Position numbers and translations under genes: made by a program. Source: Escherichia phage P896. Taken from it: a stretch of 64,000 nt of DNA. The DNA is taken from sequence record OL451225.1. The stretch is one strand, 5' to 3'. Positions 8,357 through 64,000 of this stretch are shown here, one piece after another (the stretch's first letter is position 1; the number at the start of each line of letters is the position of its first letter). A model generated the notes under the pieces. The model did no database searches, was not told the origin of the DNA, and was given only the letters and a program-made list of their open reading frames with translations.

Positions 8357-10663
<2,307 letters not shown>

Positions 10664-15266: not shown

Positions 15267-15694
15267 TGTTTATTATCCCTGATGATTACGAATTAACTCT
15301 TGAAAACATCGAAAGTGTTTCCGAAGAAGCTCAGGGACAATTTGATTCATTATCTGAAGCCTTAGAAAAAGACGATATAAATATTATTGTAGAAAACATG
15401 TTTGCAGCCAGTGAATACGAAAAAGCAACGGTTATCGGCGCTCTGAATGAAGGTGTTCAGCTTAACGAATTTATCGTTAAACATGTATCGTCTCGCGGTG
15501 AGTTAACCCGCACAAAAGACCGAGCTACTCGTAAGCGTAATGCTTTCCAAACAACTGGTCTTTCTAAAGCTAAACGTCGTCAAATTGCCCGTCTGGCTAC
15601 TAAAACGAAAAGAGCAAACCCATCTACGCAAATCAGAGCAGAGCGCAAGCGCAAAAAAGCTCGAGCTAAGCGTAAAGCATTCGGACTTGATTAA
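15266..15694 (+). CDS. 68: prohead core protein gp68
   Basis: 142 aa with basic C-terminus; T4 synteny. Confidence 0.8.
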
Positions 15695-19096: not shown

Positions 19097-19166
19097 TTTA
19101 AACTCCAGGTTTTGTTTGTTAACTCAGTATGGAATCATTATGTCTTATCTTAATCTGGTTGTAAAC
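19097..19166 (-). repeat. early promoter + 5'UTR cassette, family A copy 1
   Basis: -35 GTTTAC (19161-19166), 18-bp spacer, -10 CATAAT (19137-19142), conserved leader TTCCATACTGAGTTAAC...CTGGAG; near-identical copies at 44425-44495 and 60143-60213. Confidence 0.6.
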
Positions 19167-19172
19167 AACTTT

Positions 19173-19180
19173 TATAAATA
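19173..19180 (+). promoter_or_regulatory. late promoter TATAAATA for gene 24
   Basis: Exact TATAAATA 27 nt upstream of the gene 24 ATG. Confidence 0.6.
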
Positions 19181-35224: not shown

Positions 35225-35513
35225 ATTTGCGGAATGAAATGAAACCTGCTGCAGTCATGACAACTTCTTTCTTAGCAAAGACTGTAATTGCAATTGGTGC
35301 TTCGGACTCAAGTTGCCCAGTTACTACACCATTAAAAATATTTTCTGTTTGTTCAGAATTTACAAAGTTTTCAACAGGGCGAAGGTCAAACTTCTTATCT
35401 TCGCCAAACACGCGCCGCAGTTCATTACCCACCGCGCTGTCAAACTCTTCTGAAGCCGGGATAACATTCTCAACTACCAGTTCCTGACCATTAAAGCGAA
35501 AAGATGATTTCAT
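35223..35513 (-). CDS. hypothetical protein (alt.-1 position)
   Basis: Start at MKSSFRFNGQ with GAGGA RBS; 96 aa. Confidence 0.6.
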   Translation of the reverse strand: MKSSFRFNGQELVVENVIPASEEFDSAVGNELRRVFGEDKKFDLRPVENFVNSEQTENIFNGVVTGQLESEAPIAITVFAKKEVVMTAAGFISFRK

Positions 35514-35544
35514 TTTGTTTTCCTCATGTGCAATTGATATGAAC

Positions 35545-35574
35545 ATTGTATCGCACTTCCTTGTGCTTGTAAAC
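35545..35574 (-). promoter_or_regulatory. early promoter
   Basis: Minus strand GTTTAC, 18 bp, TACAAT. Confidence 0.5.
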
Positions 35575-35576
35575 CC

Positions 35577-37637
35577 CTACGAAAGGAATTTAGGAGGAAT
35601 AGCTTCCAAATTAATACAACTAGCAAGAATACCAAGACCTTGATTGACTTTCTTCGTTACCCCAGAGGATGCAAACGATGCAAAGTCAACAGATTCTGCT
35701 GGCTCTTCTGTTTCCTCGCCCTGATAAACGACAAGCTCACCAGTTTCCATCAACACATCACCATCATAGATAACTGCATTTTCATCCAGTTGGTCCGTAG
35801 TCTGGATATCAGCTTCCAGCATTTTGACGTTCGCGTTTCCTTGATACGAAGCATCAGTAATTTTGGTAATCTTAACTACAGTCCCACGAGGAAGAATAAC
35901 TTCCTGCTCGGACGGGTTGCTTGACAATTCCCCAGGAACAATTACGTTAATTAAGTCCGCCCCAGAAATTTTCCAACCAACATGCATCATTACGTGGTCG
36001 CGGCGTGCATCCGGCATATCTGGTAAAACAATTTCGTCATCAGCCTGGAAAGATGTCCCATCACGATAGTCCTGATGAACTGCAGCCATAGCAACGTTCG
36101 CCACCCAGCCACCAAAGATAATCGGTTTAAACGACGTTGATACATAGTTCCTGAAATAAAATAATTTAGATTTCTTAATTTTATCAAATGTAGGAACGTT
36201 TAAATATTGACCACGCCAAAGAGTTGTATTAGGCGGCAACTTATGTCCAATTTCAAAGGCCGAATCCAATTCCTTAATTGTTTCGACAACTCTGTCTAGA
36301 TTTAGGAATTCAGCTTCTTCTTCATAATATTTGCCCATCAAATAATTATTAATATCGGCATAGTTTGCTCCACAATAATCTGCAATTGCTTCTCGCTGGC
36401 CATAATGGAAACGGTTGTCAGTATACCCTGCTGTGAAATTAAGAGTATTTTCTGATGCTTCTTCGGCAAAGTCTTTAACTGCAACACGAATGGCGCTTGT
36501 GTATTCTTTTTCCCAGAGCGAGGCTGCATAAGTGGCTGCATCCAGGTTAGGAGGAGCATCATTCATTTTTCTTTCGATAAATGCGGCTTTGCGAAGGTTA
36601 AGAATCTCTGCGCATGATTCGGCAAAAATCTGCATCTGCTTCATACTACCAACCGGAGCACGTTTAAGTTCACGATGCATACGGTTAAAAATTGGGTCAG
36701 AGTCTTCAACACGAATTTCTTCTTTCCAAACACCATTTGCTCGCATAGCCTCATCTGCTGCACGCATACGAGCCATAGTATTCGTTTCAGAAGGTCGAAC
36801 AAAAATTTCCAGTTCTTCATAATCATCGATAAGTTCTGCCGTAGCCGGTCGACTAAACTTAGCAGCTTCTGCATCAATTTCGTCCCAACCGTCTGGTACG
36901 GAATCACTTGGAGCGTACTGGGCTTGTGCAATAGCTCGGCGACTGATTTTAGTTTTCTGGGCAACAGCAGCATCGGTCTTTTTGTTTGCTGCGTCAATCA
37001 GAACTTCGGCTGCGATTTCTTGTTTGGAGACTTGTGCGCCTGTATCTTTATTAGTGAATACATCGCCGACTTTAGTTTCAACTTTTTGATATTTCTCAGG
37101 GACCGGTGGCATACCATCAACCGAAAGCAGGTCAACACCCTTTTTGTACATAATTACATAAGCGTTCTTTTTACCGAGGCCGGAAGCATTCGGAAGAACA
37201 TGATAACGCCCGCTGGTTTTCATTTGAATCAGTCGATTCATAATACGAATAACAGCTTGGTCTTGTCCTTTCATCTTTTTGGATGGGAAACGGAACAAGA
37301 CTACATCAGGTTTGCCTAGTTTAATGCTTTCCCAGACTGTAACAAAAATCAGGTTAATCGCATCAAGAGGTTTTTCACCTAGACCACCCTTCAGAGGAAT
37401 AGCATGGCCATGTGAAGTCCCGGATAACAGGAATACCTCGGCAATTGCATCGCCACGTTTATATTGTTTAACTGTTTCTTTGCCCGTGAATTGCATCAAA
37501 CGGGCCATAAGAGAATTGGTCCCAGGAACACCGAATTGCCAAACCTGCGGGACCTTGTATTTTGGATTCATATTAATGACAGGATAACCGAAGGCTTCGA
37601 TATATTTGTCAAAGAGTTCATTTAATTGTTCAGACAT
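35577..37637 (-). CDS. alt: Alt-family ADP-ribosyltransferase (internal head protein), copy 1
   Basis: 686 aa; N-terminal LNE|LF motif of the prohead-protease type; C-terminal ART signature ...YVSTSFKPIIFGG...EQEVILPRGT. Confidence 0.85.
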   Translation of the reverse strand: MSEQLNELFDKYIEAFGYPVINMNPKYKVPQVWQFGVPGTNSLMARLMQFTGKETVKQYKRGDAIAEVFLLSGTSHGHAIPLKGGLGEKPLDAINLIFVTVWESIKLGKPDVVLFRFPSKKMKGQDQAVIRIMNRLIQMKTSGRYHVLPNASGLGKKNAYVIMYKKGVDLLSVDGMPPVPEKYQKVETKVGDVFTNKDTGAQVSKQEIAAEVLIDAANKKTDAAVAQKTKISRRAIAQAQYAPSDSVPDGWDEIDAEAAKFSRPATAELIDDYEELEIFVRPSETNTMARMRAADEAMRANGVWKEEIRVEDSDPIFNRMHRELKRAPVGSMKQMQIFAESCAEILNLRKAAFIERKMNDAPPNLDAATYAASLWEKEYTSAIRVAVKDFAEEASENTLNFTAGYTDNRFHYGQREAIADYCGANYADINNYLMGKYYEEEAEFLNLDRVVETIKELDSAFEIGHKLPPNTTLWRGQYLNVPTFDKIKKSKLFYFRNYVSTSFKPIIFGGWVANVAMAAVHQDYRDGTSFQADDEIVLPDMPDARRDHVMMHVGWKISGADLINVIVPGELSSNPSEQEVILPRGTVVKITKITDASYQGNANVKMLEADIQTTDQLDENAVIYDGDVLMETGELVVYQGEETEEPAESVDFASFASSGVTKKVNQGLGILASCINLEAIPPKFLS

Positions 37638-44424: not shown

Positions 44425-44495
44425 TTTATTCTCCAGTGTTTTATTGTGTAACTCAGTATGGAATCATTATGCACTGGACCAACCCTGTTGTAAAC
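44425..44495 (-). repeat. early promoter + 5'UTR cassette, family A copy 2
   Basis: GTTTAC (44490-44495), 18 bp, CATAAT (44466-44471), leader TTCCATACTGAGTTACACAATAAAACACTGGAGAATAAA-ATG. Confidence 0.6.
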
Positions 44496-44516
44496 CCCTT
44501 TATGGAAAATAAAAAA

Positions 44517-47496: not shown

Positions 47497-48038
47497 CAGA
47501 TTGTCTCCTGTTTTACTTGTTTAACGATAGAAGCTTTTGTGATATCGCCTTTGATAATATAGCAATCTTCTGCAGTACCACGGTTTAACAGACGCTCTGC
47601 CTCGCCTTCCGCATATTCTTTTGACACATGACGAGAGTTAATCTCAATCTTGCCATTTTTAACCACAAGCAATTTCCAAACTGATGCAAGTTTCACTGGC
47701 ACAGGTTCAACTTCTGGCTTAACGCCAACTTCCGCTTGGATGAAATAATCAAATTCATCAGACAATGGACCAGCAGAAACAAACATTGCCCCATGATGCC
47801 TGTTTTCTGCACCAGATATTTTTGCCAAATCCACAAAATTCTTTTCATCAATCAAACGAATCTCACAAACTTTTCTTCCACCGCTAGCAGTATCAGGGAC
47901 AATCTTAACTTCAAACGGAGTCATACCGATGTATTTGGCAATTTGGTAATTAGCTGCCCAGCCTCCGGCAATAAACTGTTTTTTGGCATTTTCAGATGCG
48001 AACTTGTAAAACTTGCCTTCTTCAAAGAAATTACTCAT
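47496..48038 (-). CDS. hypothetical protein with GKFY...AKKQFIAG N-terminal motif
   Basis: 180-aa ORF; shares the N-terminal motif with the ORF at 60476-60843. Confidence 0.6.
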   Translation of the reverse strand: MSNFFEEGKFYKFASENAKKQFIAGGWAANYQIAKYIGMTPFEVKIVPDTASGGRKVCEIRLIDEKNFVDLAKISGAENRHHGAMFVSAGPLSDEFDYFIQAEVGVKPEVEPVPVKLASVWKLLVVKNGKIEINSRHVSKEYAEGEAERLLNRGTAEDCYIIKGDITKASIVKQVKQETI

Positions 48039-48098
48039 TTTGTTTTCCTCATGTGTTGATGAAATTCATTATACACCATCCGTGGTGAAAGTAAACAC

Positions 48099-49619: not shown

Positions 49620-50838
<1,219 letters not shown>

Positions 50839-50842
<4 letters not shown>

Positions 50843-51321
50843 ACACCAAGCTCCTTATAAAGTTCTTCGCGACAGGTTTTAAGGATTTTACCAGTTTCAT
50901 AAGCTGCACTTTCAGAAACATCACCAAGTGCAGCGGCAGATTGCATTTGTCCATGGCGTTTAGCTGCATATTCAAAACTTTTCACCAATTCACGAATACG
51001 TTCTTTTTCATTGTACTCTTCAATGAATTCAGGGTATTCCCAAACAGGTCGCATCATACGATACCAATGCTGAATAGTAATATAATTACTTCCATCCAGA
51101 TTAATAATTTGCGAAGGCTTAATAGACCCTGGGGCATAAAAAGTTACCTGTCTTACTACATCAATACCGTCCACCATAGCCCAAGCAAAATCGAAAGTTG
51201 CCTTCTTTTCAATTGGTGTGCTTGCACAGGACCCTAATTTTAAGAGCTTTTGTAATACAGGAGATTTAACACCTGAAATGTATTCAGGATTAGCTACAAA
51301 AGAATTGTCACGTAAAGTCAT
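50839..51321 (-). CDS. hypothetical protein
   Basis: Start at MTLRDNSF with GAGGA RBS (track ORF extends upstream through the promoter region); 160 aa. Confidence 0.6.
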
Positions 51322-51357
51322 AGTCATTTCCTCAAATATTTTATAATCCGTAGGAGC

Positions 51358-51387
51358 ATTATACTCTGCTCCCATGAGTTTGTACAC
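51358..51387 (-). promoter_or_regulatory. early promoter
   Basis: Minus strand GTGTAC, 18 bp, TATAAT. Confidence 0.5.
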
Positions 51388-51490
51388 TACTTTCCAAAAA
51401 GACCCTGAACACATAAAGTGGCCGCAATTCCAAAACAAAAACAGAATGCACCAAATCTAACAATATCCCAACCAAGGCTACAGGTCTCAA

Positions 51491-51781
51491 TCATTTGCAA
51501 CGTTCCTCTTTTAGTTCAGAACGATAATAACATAACATACCTTTTTGGTCACGTACATATCTTTTTACATCATTCATCCAAATCCTGAATTCTTGCGATG
51601 CTTCAAAAGGCATACCAACCCAGGCTTGACCATCAATTACCTTCACTTCCCATTGCTGCTTATAATCAGCCAATGCAACAGGCCAATTAGGATGAACTTG
51701 GATTGTGGGCTCCACAACGGGCTTCTGGGCGCATGAAACGAGTCCAATAGCCAAACATACTGCCATGATAGATTTCATCAT
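51491..51781 (-). CDS. pseT.2: o-spanin (outer-membrane lipoprotein, Rz1-like)
   Basis: 96 aa; signal peptide and lipobox LVSC; Pro-rich periplasmic domain with Cys; ATGA-coupled to the i-spanin gene. Confidence 0.75.
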   Translation of the reverse strand: MMKSIMAVCLAIGLVSCAQKPVVEPTIQVHPNWPVALADYKQQWEVKVIDGQAWVGMPFEASQEFRIWMNDVKRYVRDQKGMLCYYRSELKEERCK

Positions 51782-52131
51782 TTGGTGAGCTCCTGGAAGT
51801 CCTGGGCGAACTTATCAAAAGACTGATTAATCTGTTTTTCAACTAATTTAGGCTTCGCTGCCACAACCTTAGTACGTTTTGCATCTGCGCGAAGTTTATC
51901 ATTTTCCTTCTGCAGGTGTTCAACATATTCCTGGCGCTGTTGGTCAAGGAGATTAATTTGATTAACCTGGTCTTTTATTGATTGCAGATTTTTCGCATTA
52001 TCTTCTGCGACTTTGGTGACTTCCGCCACCGCTGTCTTGAGATTATCCACTTTTGCTTTTAGATAGAAACCACTACCAGCAGTTACTACCAGGGCGAGCA
52101 TAAGCCCTGTGGTGAGATTACTTATTTGCAT
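51778..52131 (-). CDS. pseT.3: i-spanin (inner-membrane spanin, Rz-like)
   Basis: 117 aa; N-terminal transmembrane helix, then coiled-coil-like charged domain. Confidence 0.75.
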   Translation of the reverse strand: MQISNLTTGLMLALVVTAGSGFYLKAKVDNLKTAVAEVTKVAEDNAKNLQSIKDQVNQINLLDQQRQEYVEHLQKENDKLRADAKRTKVVAAKPKLVEKQINQSFDKFAQDFQELTK

Positions 52132-52625
52132 AACTTGATGATTACCTCAACAATATCATCCTGGGATAAACCATTCAGGAGGATGTGATTTGTACTGTCA
52201 GATGCTGAAATGCGGAACTGATTACCAACTTCATCCGCCATATCATCCTGGGTTAACACTGGGTGTTTAATTCCCAGGCGGTGTTGAAGTGTCAGGGGTT
52301 CAACCACAACATAACAAACACATCCATTGATATGCACATTAGGTTGGGTCTGATTGATGAACACTTCTGCATCATATTTAACCAAATGGTTCTTTAAGAA
52401 GTCAACCATTTCAGGAACAGATTCATGCAGTGCTTCTTTCCGCTCTTCTGATTTCTTATCACGATATTCTTTTTGTTTCGCCTTCAACTTATTATCAGAC
52501 GCCAGTTTCTTTCTTAAGTCAGTAAGGAACCCAACATTTTTGGAACCTTTATAAACATAGATTCCGTCATGGCGGTCACCATATACATCAACAATCATTT
52601 CATTTGAAATCAGTTGCATATTCAT
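52122..52625 (-). CDS. alc: Alc, inhibitor of host transcription
   Basis: Start at MNMQLISNEMIVDVYGDRHDGIYVYKGSKN with GAGGA RBS; 167 aa; position between spanins and rnlA. Confidence 0.8.
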   Translation of the reverse strand: MNMQLISNEMIVDVYGDRHDGIYVYKGSKNVGFLTDLRKKLASDNKLKAKQKEYRDKKSEERKEALHESVPEMVDFLKNHLVKYDAEVFINQTQPNVHINGCVCYVVVEPLTLQHRLGIKHPVLTQDDMADEVGNQFRISASDSTNHILLNGLSQDDIVEVIIKLCK

Positions 52626-52638
52626 AATATTTTCCTCA

Positions 52639-52872
52639 TTAGTAGCGGTTGTAACCTCTAGGACCAAAAGAGTTGGCACCCAGGCGTTCATCTTTCTTTT
52701 TGGCTCTTGCTCTAAACCCAGAATCACCTGTTTGAGCTTTCAGTTCTTTTAACAATTTGGCCTTCAGGTCAGTAATGAAACCAATCCGGCGGTCTCCCTT
52801 GTAGACATAGATTCCGTCATTACTGTCACCATATGCCTGTGTAACTCTTTCATTTGTAATTAAGTTTAACAT
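52639..52872 (-). CDS. small protein paralogous to the Alc N-terminal region
   Basis: 77 aa MLNLITNERVTQAYGDSNDGIYVYKGDRRIGFITDLKAKL...; GAGGA RBS and its own early promoter. Confidence 0.65.
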   Translation of the reverse strand: MLNLITNERVTQAYGDSNDGIYVYKGDRRIGFITDLKAKLLKELKAQTGDSGFRARAKKKDERLGANSFGPRGYNRY

Positions 52873-52933
52873 GTTTTAGTCCTCATCAGTAGTTGATGGA
52901 ACCATTATGTATAGAAAGAAGGGGCTTGTACAC
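52873..52933 (-). repeat. early promoter + 5'UTR cassette, family B copy 1
   Basis: GTGTAC (52928-52933), 18 bp, CATAAT (52904-52909), leader GGTTCCATCAACTACTGATGAGGA; the -35 overlaps a GGGGcttgtacaCCCC hairpin. Confidence 0.55.
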
Positions 52934-52942
52934 CCCTTTTTA

Positions 52943-54079
52943 TTATTCAGGAAGGATTACTTCCGCTTGGTAGTCCGACGGAATGTAAAGTTTATGATTT
53001 TTAAGGAAAACTTTATTGATTTGAGCAATCGTTTGTTCGGTTTCCTGGGGGCGTTGATAGGTGTTCATTAATACGGAGAACAATCCCGGGTACGGTTTAC
53101 ACAACTCTTGACCTTTAATCGCAAACTCGCGACGGTCTTTTCCTGCCAGTTGTTTCTGGGCGTCAAGCAACAATCCCAGCGTATTGGACAGATAATCCAG
53201 ATGTACAATGGTAAAGGCATTAACTTTTTCGCGAGCATAATCATCACCAGTAAACATGGCAATAACATCATCAGCCCCGCCGGCAACAACAACTTCAAAC
53301 AAACGCTCATTATTATTAATGGAGTCTTTAGTATGGTGCAGAGCACAATACCATTCTGTTTTCAGCTTGAACTTCTGACCACTTGCCAGCTCGTAGACGA
53401 AGCCTTCAATCTCTTTCATACCACGAACATTCTCAATGCTCACCAGGTCATATGCTTCAACCAGGAAAGGACGGAGTGCAGCATCTTTGAACAGTTCCTG
53501 GTATGGGATATATTCGCCAGTTTCATTATGACGAACGTTCAGTAAAATCAGGTCACGTTCCTGGTAAGGCAAAACAATGCGGTTGGTTGGTGCAACATAT
53601 TCCATATTGCATGCATAACCAGCTTCAGTGATTTCAGTCACACGAGCCCTGAACGCTTCACGGTGCGGTTGTTTAAACACCTGCAGAGATTCAGCAGCTT
53701 GGGAACTTTTAATCGACCCTTTGGATTTAAAAGCAATATTAGTCTGGTCCATATAAGTAGAAACCAAGCTACCATCAGCTTTTGCAGTAACCAGGACAAC
53801 TTCATCAAGGTTAAGGTCCATGGTCATTGGGTTCTCACCCAGATTAAAGAATTTTTCCATAGGACGGGCAGCAATGCGAACTGGACCATTGTCATCCATT
53901 TCAAACATAATGCCGCGGCACTCCAGTGCGTCATCAAGAAGCCAATCACTATAGGAAGCATAGTTATAGCTAAAGATGCGGAACTTAGTTTCAAATGGAG
54001 AAACAAAATCCGTATAGAAAAACTTACCTTTATCGGATTCGGCGCAAAGCTTCATTAAGTTATCATATAATTCAATCAT
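52943..54079 (-). CDS. rnlA: RNA ligase 1 (RnlA)
   Basis: 378 aa; ...FRIFSYNYASYSDWLLDDALECRGIMFEMD...; adenylylation motif KADGSL. Confidence 0.9.
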   Translation of the reverse strand: MIELYDNLMKLCAESDKGKFFYTDFVSPFETKFRIFSYNYASYSDWLLDDALECRGIMFEMDDNGPVRIAARPMEKFFNLGENPMTMDLNLDEVVLVTAKADGSLVSTYMDQTNIAFKSKGSIKSSQAAESLQVFKQPHREAFRARVTEITEAGYACNMEYVAPTNRIVLPYQERDLILLNVRHNETGEYIPYQELFKDAALRPFLVEAYDLVSIENVRGMKEIEGFVYELASGQKFKLKTEWYCALHHTKDSINNNERLFEVVVAGGADDVIAMFTGDDYAREKVNAFTIVHLDYLSNTLGLLLDAQKQLAGKDRREFAIKGQELCKPYPGLFSVLMNTYQRPQETEQTIAQINKVFLKNHKLYIPSDYQAEVILPE

Positions 54080-54486
54080 TTCTTCACCTTATGTTGGTAA
54101 TTCCACGGGGGATTAAAAAGCTTGATGAACATCGGCTCTTCCAGAGACATCGTTTCGACTGACATCGTACCAAGTTCATTGGTCATTGACAGATTGAAAC
54201 ATTGTCGTGCATAGAATACCACCTTTTTACCTTCTTGTAAAGCTTCATGTATCATCCGGGATTTGTTTGAATCACTCGTCTGTTCGATTCGGTTAATTGC
54301 AGTCCGGTAATAGTTGATACGCTTCTTAAGGTTGTTCGTCTTACCAATATACACTAGTTCATCATCAACCGAAATAGCATAGATAACATTTTTCTTATTT
54401 GCGAGAGTAAGGATAGGGATTTTACCATCGACTAACTCCAACTCCGCGTATTTTATAAAACTGTATTCATCAGCGATTTGTTTCAT
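54076..54486 (-). CDS. denA: endonuclease II (DenA)
   Basis: Start at MKQIADEYSFIKY (track ORF is TTG-extended by 2 codons); GIY-YIG-like IYAISVDDELVYIGKT; 136 aa. Confidence 0.85.
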   Translation of the reverse strand: MKQIADEYSFIKYAELELVDGKIPILTLANKKNVIYAISVDDELVYIGKTNNLKKRINYYRTAINRIEQTSDSNKSRMIHEALQEGKKVVFYARQCFNLSMTNELGTMSVETMSLEEPMFIKLFNPPWNYQHKVKK

Positions 54487-54495
54487 GGGCAAAAA

Positions 54496-54507
54496 GGGCC
54501 GAAGCCC
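54496..54507 (-). terminator. hairpin terminator after nrdB
   Basis: GGGCcgaaGCCC hairpin followed on the minus strand by TTTTTG. Confidence 0.5.
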
Positions 54508-54512
54508 TTTCC

Positions 54513-55691
54513 TTATAGATATTTACGGAAACCAGCAAGAACATTCTCATCGACGTCATTGTCAATCTGGGCTACCAGGTAAGCAGACAACTCAACTTCT
54601 TGCGGTGCAGATTGCACATTATCAGAGTTAAGATATTCACGAATCCATGGAATCGGGTGCTTAGTAGATTCTAACACGATTTCACAAGGGAGACCGCATT
54701 GCTTCATACGAGAAACTGTCAGGTAATCGATGAAGCAGTTAAGAATCTCGACGCTCAACCCAGGGAGTCCACCATCTTTAAACAGATGTACGGCCCATTC
54801 TTTTTCCTGGCGATTAACTTCCATGAAAATAGCTGCGGCTTCTGCTTCGCATTCGTGAGCGATTTTAACCCATTCGTCACCGTCAACACCAGTCTGCAGC
54901 TGACGAAGAATATATTGGGTCCCCTTAAGGTGGAGCTGTTCATCACGGGCGATGAACTTCATTATCTTCGCATTACCTTCCATGATTTCCATGTTCTTAT
55001 GGAAGTTGAAAGTACATGCGAAAGATACATAAAAACGAATAGCTTCCAGGGCGTTAATAACATGCAGGCAGAGATAAAGAGACTTCATCAATGCTCGTTT
55101 GGCGATAGCTTCTTGTTTGATAGCTCGTTCCAAACGTTCGTCCGCTTCGGGAGTTTCTTTGGCCAGTTCAACAAAAGCAATCTGGTTTTGCCATTGACGA
55201 GTTTTATTCAGAACATCATCATAGTAATGACCAATGGATTCTGCGCGCTTCATGATTGCATCATCTAACAGGATTTCGTCGAATACCTTCGCCGGGTCCG
55301 TATAGAGATTTCGCATGATGTGCGTATAAGAACGAGAGTGAATTGTCTCGCTGAATGTCCAGGTCTGAATCCATGTATCAAGGCTCGGGTCAGAAACTAA
55401 TGCGGCTAATGCTGCAGCTGGAGCACGCCCCTGGATACTATCCAGAAGTGATTGGTATTTCAGGTTGTTGGTAAAAATATTTTGTTGATGTTCAGGAAGC
55501 TTATTAAATTGGGCTCCATCCATCATCAGGTTTACTTCCTCTGGTCGCCAGAAGAATGATAATTGCTTTTCTGTTAATTCTTCGAAAACTTTATGGCGCT
55601 GGATATCATAACGGGCGATGCCCAATCCTGAGCCAAAAAACATAGGCTCGGCTAAAACATCCACTGGAGTGGTATTAAAAACTGTACTCAT
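54513..55691 (-). CDS. nrdB: ribonucleotide reductase beta subunit (NrdB), uninterrupted
   Basis: 392 aa, single ORF; size as spliced T4 NrdB. Confidence 0.9.
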   Translation of the reverse strand: MSTVFNTTPVDVLAEPMFFGSGLGIARYDIQRHKVFEELTEKQLSFFWRPEEVNLMMDGAQFNKLPEHQQNIFTNNLKYQSLLDSIQGRAPAAALAALVSDPSLDTWIQTWTFSETIHSRSYTHIMRNLYTDPAKVFDEILLDDAIMKRAESIGHYYDDVLNKTRQWQNQIAFVELAKETPEADERLERAIKQEAIAKRALMKSLYLCLHVINALEAIRFYVSFACTFNFHKNMEIMEGNAKIMKFIARDEQLHLKGTQYILRQLQTGVDGDEWVKIAHECEAEAAAIFMEVNRQEKEWAVHLFKDGGLPGLSVEILNCFIDYLTVSRMKQCGLPCEIVLESTKHPIPWIREYLNSDNVQSAPQEVELSAYLVAQIDNDVDENVLAGFRKYL

Positions 55692-55729
55692 TTTATTTCC
55701 TCAATAGCTCATCCATGAGCATAATTATA

Positions 55730-57985
55730 TCAAAGTTTGCAGGCGGAGCAGTCTTCTGCTTTAGGAGCTTCGATTTCGTAATCGTCTGTTCCGGAACCAT
55801 CTCTAGTGTTATGATAATAAAGGTTTTTTCCACCAAAATACCAGAAGTACATCAAGTCGTCAAGCATAACTGACATTGGAACTTTTCCTTTCGGATAATT
55901 CTGCGGGTCATAATACGTATTTGCCGATGCTGACTGACAAATCCATTTCAACATAATCGCGACTTGGGTCAGATAAGGTTTGTTACCCTGCTTAGCTAGC
56001 ACCCATGCGTAATCGTACAATCCTTTATTGTGCTCAATATTGGGCACGACTTGATTAAAGGAACCCTCTTTTGACTCTTTAATAGAGACTGGTCCACGCG
56101 GAGGTTCGATACCGTTTGTACTGTTAGAAACTTGGGAAGATGACTCACAAGGCATAAGTGCTGATAATGTGCTATTACGGATGCCATGTTCAACCAGGTC
56201 TTCCCGCAACTGCGCCCAGTCACAAACGTAGTTTGGAGCTGCGATTTGGTCAATCTTTTTATTGTACCAGTCGATAGGTAATTCGCCTCGAGCCCAACGA
56301 GTGTCTGAATAATATTCGCAAGGTCCTTTTTCTTTGGCGAGCTTGATTGATGCTCGGATAAGGCCATATTGTAATCTCTCGAACAGTTCATGTGTTAAAT
56401 CATTTGCATCAGCATAGGAAGCGAAATTGCTTGCCAGCCATGCAGCATAGTTAGTAACCCCAACACCCAGGTTGCGGCGTTTTTTGGCTTTCAGAGCTTC
56501 TTTAACCGGATAACCCTGATAGTCCAACAGGTTATCAAGAGCACGAACTTGAACTTCAGCCAGCTCGTTAATCTTATCTTGGTCCTGCCAGTCAAAACTA
56601 TCCAGAACAAATGCCGACAATGTGCACAATCCGATTTCAGCGTCTTCGCTGTTCACATCAGTAGTCGGGATTGCAATTTCGCAGCAAAGGTTTGATTGAC
56701 GAATCGGAGCCTTATCACGGATGAACGGAGTGTAGTCATTCACGTTATCGACGAACTGCGGATAAACCCTGGCTGTACCGGAACGTTCAGTCATGAATAA
56801 TTCGAATACATCTTTTGCTTTGATACGTTTCTTGCGAACTGTCGGGTCTTTTTCTAAGGCTTCATATAACTCGCGGAATTTATCCGGGTTATCAAAATAT
56901 GAATAATACAATTCACCGCCAGCTTCGTGCGGACTAAACAGAGTGATGTAATCATTCTTAGCCAGTCGTTCCATCATCAGGTTATTCAGCTGGACGCCAT
57001 AGTCCATATGTCTGATGCGGTTTTCTTCAACGCCCTTGTTGTTCTTCAGAACGAGTAAATTTTCAACTTCCAAATGCCAAATAGGATAATAAGCAGTAGC
57101 AGCGCCGCCACGGATTCCACCTTGTGAACATGATTTAACAGCCGTTTGGAAATGTTTCCAGAACGGAATAACACCAGTATGCTTAACTTCGCCCATACCG
57201 ATTTTCGAACCTTCGGCACGAATCATGCCAACGTTGATACCAATACCTGCGCGCTTACTGATATATTCGATGATTGAATTAGCAGTCTTATTAATTGACT
57301 TCAGGGAGTCAGCCGCTTCGATAACCACGCATGAACTGAACTGCCTGGTAGGTGTTCTGGCGCCCGCCATGATTGGCGTGGGCAACGAAACCTGTCGAGT
57401 GGATACTGCATCATAAAAACGGCAAACGTGCTTCAGACGGTCCGTTGGTTCATCCTGGTGCAGTGCCATGCCGATAGCCATGATTGCGAATTGCGGAGTC
57501 TCGTAGATTTTCCCAGTGGTTTTATCTTTAACCAGGTATTTTTCTTTAAGCTGCATCGCGCCTGCATAAGTCAAGTCAAAATCACGTTCGTGTTTGATAC
57601 GAGATTCCAGATAAGTAATCTCTTCGGCCGAGTAGCTTGACAACAGTTCCGGGTCGTATTTGCCTTCATTGACACAATAAGAAATCTGGTCAATAAAAGA
57701 ACGCGGTTCGAACTGGCCATAAACATCTTTACGCAGAGCAAACATCGTAGCCTTCGCTGCAACGTATTGGTAATCTGGTTCTTCAACCGAGATAAGCCCA
57801 GCAGACACTTTGATGATAACCGTCTGAATATCGCGAGTAGTCATACCATCGCGCAGGTGTGGTTTGATTGTTTCGTATAATTCATACGGGTCGATATTGG
57901 TTCCTTCACATGACCAGGAAAGAACTTTAATAATTTTCTGGCCATCAAAATCTTGAGATACGCCACTACTTTTTTGTACTTGCAT
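55730..57985 (-). CDS. nrdA: ribonucleotide reductase alpha subunit (NrdA)
   Basis: 751 aa; active-site region SNLCCEIAIPT; C-terminal CSACKL. Confidence 0.95.
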   Translation of the reverse strand: MQVQKSSGVSQDFDGQKIIKVLSWSCEGTNIDPYELYETIKPHLRDGMTTRDIQTVIIKVSAGLISVEEPDYQYVAAKATMFALRKDVYGQFEPRSFIDQISYCVNEGKYDPELLSSYSAEEITYLESRIKHERDFDLTYAGAMQLKEKYLVKDKTTGKIYETPQFAIMAIGMALHQDEPTDRLKHVCRFYDAVSTRQVSLPTPIMAGARTPTRQFSSCVVIEAADSLKSINKTANSIIEYISKRAGIGINVGMIRAEGSKIGMGEVKHTGVIPFWKHFQTAVKSCSQGGIRGGAATAYYPIWHLEVENLLVLKNNKGVEENRIRHMDYGVQLNNLMMERLAKNDYITLFSPHEAGGELYYSYFDNPDKFRELYEALEKDPTVRKKRIKAKDVFELFMTERSGTARVYPQFVDNVNDYTPFIRDKAPIRQSNLCCEIAIPTTDVNSEDAEIGLCTLSAFVLDSFDWQDQDKINELAEVQVRALDNLLDYQGYPVKEALKAKKRRNLGVGVTNYAAWLASNFASYADANDLTHELFERLQYGLIRASIKLAKEKGPCEYYSDTRWARGELPIDWYNKKIDQIAAPNYVCDWAQLREDLVEHGIRNSTLSALMPCESSSQVSNSTNGIEPPRGPVSIKESKEGSFNQVVPNIEHNKGLYDYAWVLAKQGNKPYLTQVAIMLKWICQSASANTYYDPQNYPKGKVPMSVMLDDLMYFWYFGGKNLYYHNTRDGSGTDDYEIEAPKAEDCSACKL

Positions 57986-58115
57986 GTTTTCCTCTGTTAT
58001 AAAATGGGGTCATGCTTATAATAACGCATGACCCTGAAGCGGAATCGTATTTATAGAAGGAAGTTAAGCCCAACCATTACGACCAAAAATAAAATGCCAG
58101 CAATTTGAATATTCA

Positions 58116-59892
<1,777 letters not shown>

Positions 59893-59902
59893 TATATTTT
59901 CC

Positions 59903-60142
59903 TCACGCTTTCTTAGCAACTTTCCAGTCAGCTTTAAATTGGTCAACGTCAGAGTGATGAATCCAGAAACCAGATGAGCTACCATCTTCATAAAGAGGAC
60001 AACCATCACACTCATCTTTCCAACCCATCGCGCATAAAGTTTCTTCAGCTTTTTCCAGAGCTTCTGGATTGTTACCCTGGATTGTGAAGTACCATTTGCC
60101 TTTAACTTCTGAATCTTTGATGCTCTCACGTTGTAATTTCAT
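59903..60142 (-). CDS. hypothetical early protein
   Basis: 79-aa ORF downstream of family A cassette copy 3; GGAG RBS. Confidence 0.6.
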   Translation of the reverse strand: MKLQRESIKDSEVKGKWYFTIQGNNPEALEKAEETLCAMGWKDECDGCPLYEDGSSSGFWIHHSDVDQFKADWKVAKKA

Positions 60143-60213
60143 TTTATTCTCCAGGGTTTTAGTTGTTAACTCAGTATGGGACCATTATGTCATAGCCCCA
60201 TTTGGTTGTACAC
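60143..60213 (-). repeat. early promoter + 5'UTR cassette, family A copy 3
   Basis: GTGTAC (60208-60213), 18 bp, CATAAT (60184-60189), leader GTCCCATACTGAGTTAACAACTAAAACCCTGGAGAATAAA-ATG. Confidence 0.6.
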
Positions 60214-60219
60214 TACTTT

Positions 60220-60474
60220 TTAAATTTTATCAAGCCATTTGCCAAGTTTAATCATTTCCTTGGTGGCTTTTTCCATACTTCTGAACTTAACTAATAAAGG
60301 ATGAGTATCAACACCCATAACAAGATTGGTTGCAAGACTGTGCTCACCCACAAGCCACAATGAGTATGTTTGAACATCGAGACCATAATTTCTGTCTTTA
60401 TGAACTCGTACACCCATTACTTCAAATTGCTTGCTTGCTTTTTCTACTGCATCCAGGAAATCATCTTTAGTCAT
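60220..60474 (-). CDS. hypothetical protein
   Basis: Start at MTKDDFLDAV (track ORF is TTG-extended); 84 aa. Confidence 0.5.
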   Translation of the reverse strand: MTKDDFLDAVEKASKQFEVMGVRVHKDRNYGLDVQTYSLWLVGEHSLATNLVMGVDTHPLLVKFRSMEKATKEMIKLGKWLDKI

Positions 60475-60475
60475 A

Positions 60476-60843
60476 TTAGACCCCAAAAGTTGCTTTAATC
60501 AGGGCAATAACTTCCGCGGCATTTTTATGATTTACCTGCACATGAATGGTTTGGGTATCAACATCAGGAGCATCGCCATCAACTTCCAGGAAGTGACAGA
60601 ATTCCCATTCAGCGAGTTCAAAGTACTCATCAACATCACCCATACTATTCAGGATGGTGCCATCTTTCATTTCAACTTTTTCAACAAAATAATCACCTTC
60701 AATATAACACATATCCAGGACTTTGAAGGAATTGCCATGCTGTTCCATTAACTTGACCATGCACGAATTATCATCAGGACTACCAGCGATGAATTGTTTT
60801 TTAGCAGCAGGGTCTAATACGTAAAATTTACCAGTTTCCATCA
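60476..60843 (-). CDS. hypothetical protein (paralog family with 60907-61269 and 47496-48038)
   Basis: Start at METGKFYVLDPAAKKQFIAG with GAGGA RBS; DEYFELAEWEF motif shared with the neighbour. Confidence 0.6.
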
Positions 60844-60903
60844 TTTTAATTTCCTCATGTAGTTGATGGGTCCATAATAACATAATCATAGACCCGTTGT
60901 AAA
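60844..60903 (-). repeat. early promoter + 5'UTR cassette, family B copy 2 (diverged)
   Basis: GTTTAC (60898-60903), about 19 bp, TATTAT, leader GGACCCATCAACTACATGAGGAAATTAAA-ATG. Confidence 0.45.
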
Positions 60904-60906
60904 CTG

Positions 60907-61269
60907 CTATTTGAAAGCTTTTTGTAGAAGTTCAATGATTTGGTCGACGTTATTAGCATCCACAACACAATTAATAGAAACCGCCCCCGAAGGTGTTTTT
61001 GTATAATTGGAGTATTCACGGAAGCAATAAAACTCTTCTTCACTAAGTTCAAAATAATCGTCACCCATGCCATCATCATTATAGATTGCACCATTAGCAC
61101 AAATGATTTCGGTTACATAATCATAGCCGTCTGCACTTGATATTGATTTAACTTCAAACCAACCGCCATTTTCTTGGATGATGTCGACCATACTAGCATT
61201 CGATGAACTAATATCAATGAAAGATTTAATACGATGTGGATTGAACTCATATTTTTTGCCGATTTCCAT
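60907..61269 (-). CDS. hypothetical protein (paralog of 60476-60843)
   Basis: 120 aa; MEIGKKYEF..., DDYFELSEEEF..., C-terminal ...IIELLQKAFK. Confidence 0.6.
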   Translation of the reverse strand: MEIGKKYEFNPHRIKSFIDISSSNASMVDIIQENGGWFEVKSISSADGYDYVTEIICANGAIYNDDGMGDDYFELSEEEFYCFREYSNYTKTPSGAVSINCVVDANNVDQIIELLQKAFK

Positions 61270-61337
61270 TTTTATTTCCTCAGTTGTTATCAGTAGTTGA
61301 TGGAATCATTATGCCTTAGCTCAAAGGACTTGTACAC
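61270..61337 (-). repeat. early promoter + 5'UTR cassette, family B copy 3
   Basis: GTGTAC (61332-61337), 18 bp, CATAAT (61308-61313), leader GATTCCATCAACTACTGATAACAACTGAGGAAATAAAA-ATG. Confidence 0.55.
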
Positions 61338-61357
61338 TACTTTTTGAAAATAAAAAA

Positions 61358-61373
61358 GGGACCCGAAGGTCCC
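61358..61373 (-). terminator. intrinsic terminator after gene 32
   Basis: GGGACCcgaaGGTCCC hairpin followed on the minus strand by TTTTTTATTTT. Confidence 0.65.
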
Positions 61374-61379
61374 CTTATA

Positions 61380-62291
61380 TTAAAGGCCAGCCAGAAGGTC
61401 GTCAAGACCATCATCAGAAGGCTCTGGAGTGCTTGGAGCAGTCGCAGTGCGTTCAGACTTAGCAGGTTTGCTGGAAGTGAAGTCTTCCATATCTTTATCG
61501 AAATCGTCCAGGTCAGCGCCCAGTTTATCAGCTTGTGCAGCGGCTTTAGAAGCAGCCCCGCCAAGAGCAGCCGTACCCATTACTTTAGAGAATTTCTTCT
61601 GATTCTCTTCAAGGGATTTAAATACCAGCAATTCATTCAGGTCAGACATTTCGTCCCAAAGTTTTTTCTGGAATGCTTCATCATTGATACCAGCGATTTC
61701 AGACTGGTTCATGAATTTGGAATCATCGTAGTTTTTATAACCGGAAACCAGTTTGGATTTCAGTACAAAGTTTGCACCTTCAAAAGGACAAGTTACATCA
61801 ATAGCTGTTTCGCCCATGTCAACATCGACTTCAACCATCTGGTTAATTTTGTCCATGATTTTCTTGCCGAAGCGATATTTGAATACTTGACCTTCGTTAG
61901 ACGGAACAGCAGGGTCTTTAATGACCAGGATGTTAGCCCAGTAAGAAGTATTACGCTTCAGTTTACGATATTCGGATTCGTTTGTGTTGTACAGGTCATT
62001 CTTGTTCATGTACGCACACACAGGGCAGTTTTCATAATCGCCGTGGGTAGAAGTACAGTTTTCAATATACCATTGACCGCCATTTTTAAAGCCGTGGTTA
62101 ACGAGCTTGATGAACGGAGATGGATTTTCTTCATTCTTGGAAGGCAGGAAACGAATAACCGCAGAACCGACGCCATCAGTATCTTTCAGTTTCCATTCTT
62201 TTTTATCGTCAGAAGAGAAACCAGAACCACCTTTCAGAGCATTAAGGGAAGCAGCCAGGTCAGCAGGGTTTTTACGTTTAAACATAGACAT
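61380..62291 (-). CDS. 32: single-stranded DNA-binding protein gp32
   Basis: 303 aa; [21 protein letters not shown]...; zinc-binding region [16 protein letters not shown]; acidic C-terminus. Confidence 0.95.
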
Positions 62292-62351
62292 ATGATTTTC
62301 CTTAGATTATTTGATTTTTAGCAGTTGTTTTGATTACATATTAATTATACT

Positions 62352-63020
62352 TCAAAGTGCTTGAAGCGTTATTTGACAGTTTTTAACGGTCTCGATGAAC
62401 AATTTACGAGCTTCAAGAGAATCGATATTTAAGATTTTCTTATAGGCATTTAGTTTGGTTGAATACTTTTCCCAAACCAAGTCGTTAGTCTGTTCATCAT
62501 GTTTATTTATAATATCTAAAAATGAATCAAGCAAACAAAACGTTTCAAATGAGATAACATTCGATTGGAGAAGTTTGAAAATATAACTTGTGTTTACTTT
62601 AGTATTATACTCGAAAATCTCTTGAAGCGATTTGACTTCGACTTTCTTACTGAAGTAATAGATATTCTTTATATCATCTTCGTATACTTGTCTAATTCTT
62701 TTAAGTCTGCCAATGTATTCTCTATAAAATATCAGAGCATCGGCATCACTTATATCGCCTATCCATGCATCCTGGTTTGCAACCAGGTTTGACATGAATA
62801 TTAACGTTAATTCTTTAAGAGTGTACTTATCACTAAGCTTTTCGAAAAAATACTTATCGCGGCGTTTTTGATAAGCACTATCGGAGATTCGCATGGTCCA
62901 GTTATATTTGATAATATCATAACGACCCGAAAAATGCTGTTTGATGGATAAGTACAGTTGATATACTGATTTACCATTTATATATCGGTTGTTATTTGGA
63001 GGCATGCGAATCGTAATCAT
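62352..63020 (-). CDS. 59: helicase loader gp59
   Basis: 222 aa; ...YINGKSVYQLYLSIKQHFSGRYDIIKYNW...AWIGDISDADALIFYREYIGRL recognised as T4 gp59-like. Confidence 0.9.
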   Translation of the reverse strand: MITIRMPPNNNRYINGKSVYQLYLSIKQHFSGRYDIIKYNWTMRISDSAYQKRRDKYFFEKLSDKYTLKELTLIFMSNLVANQDAWIGDISDADALIFYREYIGRLKRIRQVYEDDIKNIYYFSKKVEVKSLQEIFEYNTKVNTSYIFKLLQSNVISFETFCLLDSFLDIINKHDEQTNDLVWEKYSTKLNAYKKILNIDSLEARKLFIETVKNCQITLQAL

Positions 63021-63310
63021 AACAAAAAGTCCAGCGTATTAGTTTTCTGTGTACGAGACATACTCGGACGAAGCAGGTTATCATCATATGCTTCATTCAT
63101 AATCTTATCGACGATTCCCGCAGGGATATATCGAGCAAAATTACCTTCGGGAATTCCACGTTCTTCCAACCAGGCAGTCGCAGCTTCCAGATAAGACATT
63201 TCAGTTGTCTCGACCATGGCTTCAATATCAAGCCCGTTTTGCTGCTTACTAATCGCCCCGGAAGGCGATTCAGTTTTCTGTGTATCAAAATTAACTAAAG
63301 AGGACATCAT
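63017..63310 (-). CDS. 33: late transcription accessory protein gp33
   Basis: Start at MMSSLVNFDTQ just after the dsbA stop (the track ORF extends upstream into dsbA in another frame); position 59-33-dsbA. Confidence 0.7.
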   Translation of the reverse strand: MMSSLVNFDTQKTESPSGAISKQQNGLDIEAMVETTEMSYLEAATAWLEERGIPEGNFARYIPAGIVDKIMNEAYDDNLLRPSMSRTQKTNTLDFLL

Positions 63311-63560
63311 AGAGCTCCACAGCTTCGGTTTTTTCATCTTCAAAACGCTCACGAGTACCTTTATGATACAGACCGAGCTGTGTATTGAACATCTTACCGT
63401 CAACGCCTAATTCAGTTTTTGCCTTATCTTTAAGGTCTTTAATTTCGTCTGCATATGCTTCCATTTTTAATTTGGTATCGGAAGCAGCTTTAATCAGCTT
63501 GGCCAGTTCAGCACCATGAGTATCAGGACAAAATTCAACTTTCACTTTTTTCTCTTTCAT
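63291..63560 (-). CDS. dsbA: DsbA, dsDNA-binding late transcription protein
   Basis: 89 aa; position between rnh and 33 as in T4. Confidence 0.8.
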   Translation of the reverse strand: MKEKKVKVEFCPDTHGAELAKLIKAASDTKLKMEAYADEIKDLKDKAKTELGVDGKMFNTQLGLYHKGTRERFEDEKTEAVELYDVLFS

Positions 63561-63568
63561 AATATACC

Positions 63569-64000
63569 TTAATAAAATTCGGCAATGTTTGCAGTTAGTT
63601 TAGACAGACCAGACTTAACAAAGTAAGGATAAACTTTACTTTTGGCTGGGATAACGTAGTTATTATATCGTTCTAAGATTGAAGCGGATATTTCCGTTGG
63701 GATAAAGTCCATATCAATCAGCAATTGGTTTTCACAGAATCTATTATATTGCTCTTCTGTTAAAAGCGTTTTCAGCACGTCATGGTCGTAATAGTTGAGC
63801 GCAATTTGTTCAAGTTCAGCAGCGCGGGTCGGTGGAGTGCGTTCACCTTCTTCGTGAGTGTAATAAAAATCACCACGAACCTTGATGCTTGACACGTTAT
63901 CTTTTTTGTCACCTTTAACAACCTTTGTCACGCAATCCATAAGGGCATCGCCTGATTTAGTTTTGACATATTTTTTCTGCATCGGGGACCATTGTTTCAC
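63569..64000 (-). CDS. rnh: RNase H / 5'-3' exonuclease, C-terminal part (5' end outside window)
   Basis: 143-aa C-terminal fragment running to the window edge; position upstream of dsbA as in T4. Confidence 0.7.
   Translation of the reverse strand: MKQWSPMQKKYVKTKSGDALMDCVTKVVKGDKKDNVSSIKVRGDFYYTHEEGERTPPTRAAELEQIALNYYDHDVLKTLLTEEQYNRFCENQLLIDMDFIPTEISASILERYNNYVIPAKSKVYPYFVKSGLSKLTANIAEFY

Follow-up and report, generated by a model that had tools for sequence, protein, structure and literature searches.

The window analysed here, a stretch of 64,000 nucleotides from Escherichia phage P896 (OL451225.1), is 98.9% identical to Shigella phage SP18 (Gaprivervirus, Tevenvirinae) and has the gene order rnh-dsbA-33-59-segG-32-frd.2a-frd.2b-...-frd-td-nrdA-nrdB-denA-rnlA-alcb-alca-pseT. 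There are three exact matches to the 11-mer CCATCAACTAC in the window, all on the minus strand, and each copy begins 4 nt past a -10-like hexamer and 13-22 nt ahead of a start codon. The adjacent genes, all of which lie on the minus strand, are frd.2a (copy C1), frd.2b (C2) and a truncated copy of alc (C3). An earlier note on this DNA had described three repeats upstream of genes as an early promoter cassette, and all three are found in the layout that it gave. Its -35 element, G(T/G)TTAC, has to be corrected to GT(G/T)TAC, the variable base being the third (GTGTAC in C1 and C3, GTTTAC in C2), while the remainder of its layout (a -10 of (C/T)AT(A/T)AT, then the leader, GAGGA and ATG) matches every copy. 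Two of its gene starts, 52872 and 61269, are right; the third, 60843, is not, as the frd.2b ATG is at 60844, with a second in-frame ATG at 60841. The longest frd.2b open reading frame (60476-60889) extends into that gene's own promoter.

Read 5' to 3' on the minus strand, C1 is AAAAAGTA GTGTAC aagtcctttgagctaagg CATAAT gattcc ATCAACTAC tgataacaact GAGGA aataaaa ATG, C2 is AAATAGCA GTTTAC aacgggtctatgattatgt TATTAT ggaccc ATCAACTAC at GAGGA aattaaa ATG, and C3 is AAAAAGGG GTGTAC aagccccttctttctata CATAAT ggttcc ATCAACTAC tgat GAGGA ctaaaac ATG. The A-rich tracts directly 5' of the -35 element read CAAAAAGTA, CAAATAGCA and TAAAAAGGG in the three copies. The features are collected in Table 1.

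Table 1. Positions of cassette elements, hairpins and related features in the window
Feature	Position	Strand	Remarks
Gene 32 intrinsic terminator hairpin	61355..61376	-	9 pairs, loop 4, tail TTTATTTT; -14.4 kcal/mol
C1 A-rich, UP-like tract TTTTCAAAAAGTA	61338..61350	-	A-rich block at about -40 to -45 also in SP18/T4 promoter logos
C1 -35 GTGTAC	61332..61337	-	sigma-70 register TGTACA, 61336-61331
C1 -10 CATAAT	61308..61313	-	
C1 discriminator GATTCC	61307-61302	-	
C1 leader core ATCAACTAC	61293..61301	-	predicted +1 to +9
C1 Shine-Dalgarno GAGGA	61277..61281	-	7 nt ahead of ATG 61269
frd.2a ORF	60907-61269	-	downstream of C1
C2 -35 GTTTAC	60899..60904	-	
C2 inverted repeat GGGTCTATGAT/ATTATGGACCC	60868..60895	-	11 bp, -15.8 kcal/mol as RNA; brackets -10, ends at -1
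C2 -10 TATTAT	60874..60879	-	extended -10 TG (TGT 60882-60880); 10/12 matches in sigma-70 scan
C2 leader core ATCAACTAC	60859..60867	-	predicted +1 to +9; preceded by GGACCC
C2 Shine-Dalgarno GAGGA	60856-60852	-	
C2 ATGAGGAAATTAAAATG, Shine-Dalgarno region to frd.2b start codon	60842..60858	-	also crossover segment of the frd.3 module indel
C3 hairpin AAGGGGTGTACAAGCCCCTT	52938-52919	-	encloses -35, -11.1 kcal/mol, then CTTTCT
C3 -35 GTGTAC	52928..52933	-	
C3 -10 CATAAT	52904..52909	-	
C3 leader core ATCAACTAC	52889..52897	-	predicted +1 to +9; preceded by GGTTCC
C3 Shine-Dalgarno GAGGA 52884-52880 to ATG 52872-52870	52870..52884	-	Alc N-terminal fragment ORF
'alcb' ORF, 77 aa, Alc N-terminal fragment	52639-52872	-	downstream of C3
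Diverged family-B copy GTTTAC-N17-TATAAT-GAATTT-CATCAAC-ACATGAGGAAAACAAAATG	about 48038-48096	-	
Diverged family-B copy upstream of alt.-3, GTTTAC..TACAAT GTTCAT ATCAATTGCACATGAGGAAAACAAAATG	about 35512-35578	-	profile E = 2e-5

All three copies have the layout of a T4-type early promoter: an A-rich tract, GT(G/T)TAC, a sigma-70 spacer of 17-18 bp (in the TTGACA register 17 bp in C1, 18 bp in C2 and 17 bp in C3), a -10 hexamer, a C-rich discriminator and an A at +1. They are correctly oriented, ahead of early-region genes and on the early-gene strand. Judged by general sigma-70 rules, some elements depart from consensus: the CATAAT of C1 and C3 does not have the usually conserved T at -12, and their -35 in the sigma-70 register, TGTACA, matches at four of six positions, for a generic score of 9/12. 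A generic sigma-70 consensus scan of the region returned 40 sites against 39.8 in shuffled sequence, so the case for promoters rests on the T4-specific profile and the context. A generic terminator scan likewise gave counts equal to those in shuffled sequence and has no discriminating power.

The failure of the generic scan to rise above shuffled sequence is the one observation that favours an accidental likeness between stretches of AT-rich intergenic DNA that share no function, an alternative that the earlier note had itself raised for the leader. With at most one mismatch allowed, CCATCAACTAC occurs six times, compared with 0.85 +/- 0.94 in 100 dinucleotide shuffles, none of which reached six. 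The SP18 genome holds 14 copies of the 9-mer ATCAACTAC on the minus strand, every one exactly 6 nt past a -10-like hexamer and 11-24 nt ahead of an ATG, and a single copy on the plus strand, within coding sequence; about 1.3 copies would be expected by chance. The genes that follow the SP18 copies are mutually unrelated and include ndd.4, trna.4, denV, mobD.5, sp and the modA region. The exact copies in the window are precisely the three located in its share of the genome, and the count of three put forward earlier, although correct for the window, is therefore a local one. We also trained a profile HMM on 19 other cassettes (11 SP18 and 8 T4 loci), from which the orthologous SP18 copies of C1-C3 were excluded. 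It finds C1 at E = 2e-12, C3 at 1e-10 and C2 at 7e-10; all of its matches are on the minus strand, and it also detects the promoter halves of a second set of cassettes with a different leader (family A; those with ATCAACTAC are family B). Given the 11-mer statistics, the 14 of 15 SP18 copies on one strand at a fixed offset, the profile matches and conservation over four phage lineages, we reject chance likeness, which we regard as having almost no probability.

Database searches with the motif itself were less informative. A BLAST search with the 73-nt C3 cassette gave full-length matches in the SP18 group only, and matches in jumbo phages (E = 7) were treated as chance. The 14-mer CCATCAACTACTGA is too short for the IMG/VR collection, where the matches listed were mostly to unrelated contigs. 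The motif string was absent from the relevant papers found in a literature search, and promoter features are absent from the T4 GenBank records.

The early promoters of T4 (Pe) have been described as very strong, of the UP/-35/TGn/-10 type, with further consensus regions evident when they are aligned (PMC2988021), and related phages favour C at -3 to -1 (PMC1524935). In T4, ATCAACTAC stands at the same 6-nt distance from the -10 hexamer upstream of motA (TACTAT acaact ATCAACTAC tgatacagaattacGGAGattagaaaATG), denV, trna.4, nrdC.8, ndd.4 and e.8, among other genes, with further copies at 27044 and 167050. Phages T2 and HY01 carry ATCAACTAAGGAG upstream of frd.1, and the Mosigvirus ATK47 carries ATCAACTACTGGAGG upstream of nrdC.8. 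The T4 promoters and the window copies share the A-rich tract, a GTTTAC-type -35, a spacer of about 17 bp, a TAnnAT -10, C or T at -1 and A at +1; ATCAACTAC is identical at +1 to +9, and both have a short leader that ends in GAGG or GGAG followed by ATG, on the same strand and in the same genomic neighbourhoods. They differ in detail. The -35 is mostly GTGTAC in the group formed by the window phage and SP18 but GTTTAC in T4; the -10 is CATAAT or TATAAT in that group and usually TACTAT in T4; and the discriminator is G(A/G)TTCC or similar as opposed to ACAACT or TACCCT. T4 early promoters are described as TGn promoters, whereas an extended -10 TG is present only in C2 among the window copies (GTG or TG occurs 5' of the -10 in about half of the SP18 cassettes). 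What sets this phage group apart is the GTGTAC -35, the CATAAT/TTCC context around the -10 and the presence of two leader families side by side. We note that the T4 early promoter upstream of motB.2 is, by map position only, probably the mutationally analysed 'P8.1'.

The cassettes are ordinary units of T4-type early promoter and short leader, of the class known as PeSL, and so represent a known kind of element. The reading as early promoter cassettes offered in the earlier note holds on comparative evidence, namely the layout, the position and orientation of the genes, and the homology to T4. From the same evidence we infer promoter activity for C1-C3, and we consider it highly probable that the copies are T4-type early promoters that depend on sigma-70, each coupled to a ready-made translation start, in a recombining module of the PeSL type. 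Unmodified host RNA polymerase would fire the cassettes straight after infection, with C1 serving frd.2a, C2 serving frd.2b and the genes downstream of it, and C3 serving the alc fragment and alc. The finding leaves the current understanding of T4-type early transcription unchanged. For annotation, it would provide the likely positions at which transcription and translation of frd.2a, frd.2b and the alc fragment begin.

In T4, several genes of this region, such as frd, td and nrd, are also served by middle-mode transcription, and C1-C3 could on that account be MotA-dependent middle promoters, or else gp55-dependent late promoters, in place of early ones. We suggest that this is very unlikely. 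C1-C3 have no MotA box, which would read (a/t)(a/t)(a/t)TGCTTtA with its centre at -30; the sequences there read ACAAGTCC, ACAACGGG and ACAAGCCC in the three copies, and the -35 region is GT(G/T)TACAAG. The late box TATAAATA is likewise absent from all three (both consensus sequences are from PMC1524935).

PeSL units have been described by Arbiol et al. 2010 (PMC2839356) and Comeau et al. 2014 (PMC4122927). In these papers the stem-loops, often made of poly-G and poly-C, sit beside, between or on top of the promoter boxes and serve as terminators or attenuators, and the unit closes with a Shine-Dalgarno sequence and ATG (PMC2839356, PMC4122927); crossovers were mapped between the -10 and the ATG (PMC2839356). 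C1-C3 correspond in having an AT-rich tract, an early promoter, a stem-loop beside or over the boxes, a Shine-Dalgarno sequence and ATG, in being present in many copies per genome among variable early genes (in SP18, 14 exact family-B and 12 family-A copies, all on the early-gene strand), and in lying at the edges of gene insertions and deletions that distinguish close relatives, the crossovers falling in the stretch from the -10 to the ATG. The class was defined in RB49/phi1, PST/T4 and nt-1/KVP40, whereas C1-C3 belong to the SP18 group, and its definition also includes mini-circles excised by recombination between flanking cassettes as well as measured terminator and promoter activity.

The stem-loops of the three copies differ in placement. 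In C3 the stem encloses the -35, and the GGGG...CCCC hairpin reported there earlier does exist; it is composed of AAGGGG-TGTACA-AGCCCCTT around the -35. The same GGGG-[-35]-CCCC(T)n design recurs in SP18 at 37535 and 19340, and the suggestion that the C3 hairpin could double as the rnlA terminator fits both this recurrence and the published PeSL design; on this sequence likeness, a role as rnlA terminator or attenuator is likely. In C2 an 11-bp stem encloses the -10, and read-through RNA containing it folds with z = -3.2. All 11 pairs are kept in SP18 and ATK47 despite changes at three pairs, with no two-sided compensatory swap; the outermost pair is G-C, G-U or A-U. The hairpins of C2 and C3 have no strong U-tract, which makes terminator function uncertain for both. 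C1 differs from the PeSL design in having no overlapping stem; instead, it lies beside the separate gene 32 terminator, whose hairpin ends 18 nt upstream of the C1 -35 and whose T-tract extends to about 61345. The three hairpins (the gene 32 terminator, the C2 -10 stem and the C3 -35 stem) would terminate or attenuate incoming transcription and would make each cassette an insulated unit.

One indication that these cassettes recombine comes from the interval between frd.2a and frd.2b. Most Gaprivervirus relatives (for example Yersinia phage P8 and phage RZ) have an extra gene of 75 aa there, 69% identical to T4 frd.3, in the order frd.2a-[B cassette]-frd.3-[degenerate cassette]-frd.2b. Both the window and SP18 are without frd.3, and their C2 matches the left cassette as far as ATGAGGAAA and, beyond it, the right junction. 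This places the crossover inside the shared 17-nt ATGAGGAAA(A/T)TAAAATG, and on sequence comparison C2 of the window is a recombinant of the two cassettes that flank frd.3 in the relatives. The frd.3 module is one more clean example of promoter cassettes as recombination joints.

Cassettes and genes are also uncoupled elsewhere. Counting the spacer, the nrdC.8 cassette of ATK47 shares 81% identity with C2, while SP18 nrdC.8 has a family-A leader; the T2 frd.1 leader is of family B and its SP18 counterpart of family A. The T4 alc promoter has the -35 context (GTTTACAAGTCCC) and the Shine-Dalgarno region (ATGAGGACT) in common with C3 but a different leader. Across 10 orthologous SP18-T4 promoter pairs, a paralogue from the same genome was closer than the orthologue for 9 of the 10 SP18 copies and 8 of the 10 T4 copies, and for both members in 8 pairs. 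We suggest that recombination between cassettes would homogenise the copies and move genes in and out between them, and that a unit of the PeSL type would be maintained by selection for promoter strength, easy escape from the promoter and an open ribosome site.

Local gene duplication that copied the upstream regions along with the genes might also leave similar cassettes behind, and both gene pairs concerned are indeed paralogous: frd.2a and frd.2b both match PF03197, and the alcb fragment, which matches positions 3-62 of the Alc family PF17527, lies upstream of full-length alc. The frd.2 proteins are, however, only 32% identical, yet their cassettes share exact 11-mers; the best match of C1 is C3 (74%), ahead of an unrelated gene, and not C2; and alca has no cassette but only a Shine-Dalgarno site. 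Eleven further exact copies stand ahead of unrelated SP18 genes, and there are more in T4. We therefore reject a duplication remnant, which is contradicted by the genome-wide distribution of the cassettes and to which we give very little credence.

Within the promoter-and-leader unit, 6 nt always separate the -10 hexamer from the A of ATCAAC, a distance that puts this A at the canonical +1 and makes it the predicted start. The 'leader' ATCAACTAC would then be the first nine transcribed bases of a short 5' UTR. The C or T at -1, A at +1 and T at +2 of the cassettes fit the Y-R-Y 'start element' of bacterial promoters (PMC12641261). Transcription would begin at the A of ATCAACTAC and give an mRNA with the end 5'-AUCAACUAC, whose G-poor leader of 25-32 nt would end in GAGGA 7 nt ahead of the AUG. 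RNAs of C1-C3 that start at +1 fold at -0.6 to -1.7 kcal/mol, with z-scores of 0 to +1, and the short 5' UTR is accordingly predicted by folding to be unstructured. A stable 5'-terminal hairpin (AUCA/UGAU) was considered and rejected, being worth at most about -1.7 kcal/mol and missing from many copies. The mean unpaired probability around the Shine-Dalgarno sequence is 0.49 in family-B leaders and 0.50-0.51 in other leaders; they are no more open than others, and the idea that they were selected for openness thus has no specific support.

Within the family, the AUCAACUAC block is conserved as strongly as the -10 hexamer, and it could for this reason be a specific post-transcriptional signal and not merely part of the promoter module. 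It might be bound by a factor of phage or host origin (a translational repressor, ribosomal protein S1 or an RNase), or it might form one side of a hairpin that covers the ribosome site in read-through RNA, leaving only the RNA from the cassette's own promoter to be translated. Several observations speak against such a signal. The RNAs that start at +1 are unstructured by the folding above, and an Rfam scan of 50000-64000 on both strands gave no match at E <= 1. RegB needs GGAG, its strong sites being GGAGRAYARAA, and RegA sites are A/U-rich and overlap the AUG (PMC3014915). The Shine-Dalgarno regions of C1 (GAGGAAAT), C2 (GAGGAAAT) and C3 (GAGGACTA) contain neither GGAG nor GGAU, reading GAGGAA or GAGGAC, and the leader is unlike the RegA sites. 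Moreover, family-A leaders serve genes of the same kind and orthologous promoters differ in their leaders, both of which argue against a strict sequence requirement.

The hairpin variant has a precedent in T4 genes such as e and soc, in whose long early transcripts a hairpin covers the ribosome site, which becomes accessible when the start lies inside the hairpin. C3 is similar in that positions -7 to +4 of its read-through RNA are able to pair with the Shine-Dalgarno region, through a UGGUUCCAUCA/UGAUG-A-GGACUA stem whose 5' arm is lost if transcription starts at +1. We compared base-pair probabilities over 58 SP18 and T4 cassettes in three settings: transcripts that start at +1, transcripts that keep 45 nt of the native sequence upstream, and transcripts in which the upstream part was shuffled (60 versions). 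The Shine-Dalgarno sequence was fully masked in read-through RNA in 13 of the 58 cassettes (at most 2 of the 60 shuffled-upstream controls being as low), where about 3 would be expected by chance, and this set includes denV in both SP18 and T4. Masking is nevertheless not general: native and shuffled upstream sequences did not differ by Wilcoxon test (p = 0.21 overall, p = 0.26 for family B), and C1-C3, unlike e and soc, are masked no more strongly than their own controls (0.72 against 0.43 in C1, 0.66 against 0.71 in C2, 0.25 against 0.26 in C3). On these values we reject Shine-Dalgarno masking as an explanation for the family, and a post-transcriptional signal in either form seems to us unlikely.

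A further idea is that AUCAACUAC and the C-rich discriminator form a dedicated recognition signal for one subset of early promoters, which we hold to be rather less likely still. Such a signal might be the target of whatever mechanism abruptly shuts off T4 early promoters, a shut-off that persists without ModA or AsiA (PMC2988021), or it might be a mark that steers mRNAs to modified ribosomes. If this were true, early genes would fall into separately regulated sets, marked by leader family A or B. Under the preferred reading, as part of an early promoter with its translation start, bases +1 to +9 of C1-C3 would have their role within the promoter module.

The family-A leader of the same phage, ATACTGAGTTA...CTGGAGAATAAAATG, is different from and longer than that of family B. 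The statement that the two families differ in the leader and share the same architecture is borne out, the A-rich tract, the -35, the -10, a discriminator ending in CC and the AT start being common to both. They lie on the same strand and have a similar copy number (family A has 12 copies in SP18, all minus). The Shine-Dalgarno region of family A, GGAGAATAAAA, fits the strong RegB-site consensus, in contrast to the GAGGAA or GAGGAC of C1-C3; GGAGAATAAAA is found in all family-A copies and also in several other family-B copies. No copy of family A was present in the parts of T4 that were searched. These observations document a T4-like phage that uses a few discrete, lineage-specific leader families.

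The family A and family B cassettes have the promoter half in common as far as the CC discriminator and AT start; beyond that point the family A leader reads ATACTGAGTTA...CTGGAGAATAAAATG. Family A has 12 copies in SP18 and none in the parts of T4 that were searched. The published consensus of strong RegB cleavage sites is matched by the Shine-Dalgarno region of family A, GGAGAATAAAA, but not by that of C1-C3, the family B copies preceding frd.2a, frd.2b and the 77-aa alc ORF. Because of this difference at sequence level, we suggest that the two leader families may differ in the speed of mRNA inactivation.

The predicted transcription starts bear on the choice of initiation codon. The first ATG (60889) of the longest frd.2b ORF (window 60476-60889, minus strand) falls within the gene's own promoter. 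In the SP18 annotation, modA and gp013 begin at 12106 and 8002, upstream of where transcription is predicted to start (12098 and 7979, respectively); the ATG codons at 12073 and 7954 fit better. For 13 of the 58 cassettes, against about three expected by chance, folding predictions have the Shine-Dalgarno sequence fully paired in RNA reading through from upstream and free in RNA initiated at +1, with no more than 2 of 60 shuffled controls giving a value that low. At the denV promoter, an anti-Shine-Dalgarno ATCTCC immediately behind the -35 element is predicted to pair with GGAGA in T4 and SP18 alike.

In many early promoters, among both SP18 and T4 cassettes, the -10 hexamer is enclosed by an inverted repeat whose end is at -1. 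The arm sequences vary from promoter to promoter with complementarity retained (GGGAGC/GCTCCC, GGGACC/GGTCCC, TAGGGT/ACCCTA, GGGATA/TATCCC, and GAGGTA/TACCTC), which, judged from these sequences, looks like covariation across paralogues. Candidate roles are an attenuator, protection of mRNA 3' ends, or an effect at the DNA level. Most -35 hexamers of the SP18 group, as surveyed across the SP18 genome, read GTGTAC, whereas all T4 promoters examined have GTTTAC; the change to GTGTAC departs from the sigma-70 consensus (TGTACA versus TTGACA) and makes the element palindromic.

Between their frd.2a and frd.2b genes, P8, RZ, and the majority of the SP18 group carry frd.3 and a degenerate cassette, both of which are absent from the window and from SP18. 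The gene order is 32-frd.2a-frd.3-frd.2b in the SP18-group relatives with frd.3, whereas in T4 it is 32-frd.3-frd.2. The 77-aa Alc-fragment ORF lies immediately upstream of full-length alc, and the predicted early promoter belongs to the fragment; full-length alc has a Shine-Dalgarno site (ATGAGGAAAATATTATG) only, without an early promoter of its own.

Locations of the features discussed (L002, L003: SP18 sequence pieces; L007, L008: T4 pieces; L013, L014: pieces cited for close relatives with frd.3)
Feature	Location	Strand	Remark
77-aa ORF	window 52639-52872	minus	Alc N-terminal third only
Full-length alc	window 52122-52625	minus	
frd.3 module region, close relatives	L013 885-1280; L014		
frd.3 indel junction	window 60842-60858	minus	within 17-nt Shine-Dalgarno-region repeat
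SP18 start-codon regions	L002 ~12073-12106; ~7954-8002		modA; gp013
denV promoter, SP18	L003 ~9240-9300		
denV promoter, T4	L008 ~15355-15413		
-35 hexamer, copies cited	window 61337, 60213, 52933, 51387		
-10-enclosing inverted repeats	window 51351-51396, 60868-60895	minus	
Family A cassettes	window 60140-60227, 44434-44509, 19109-19180	minus	
T4 cassette with inverted leader copy	L007 ~6540-6600	minus	leader start 6594

As a separate observation, the -35/-10 spacer of a single T4 cassette holds a 13-nt sequence, ATCAGTAGTTGAT, that perfectly matches the cassette's own leader, ATCAACTACTGAT, in inverted orientation.
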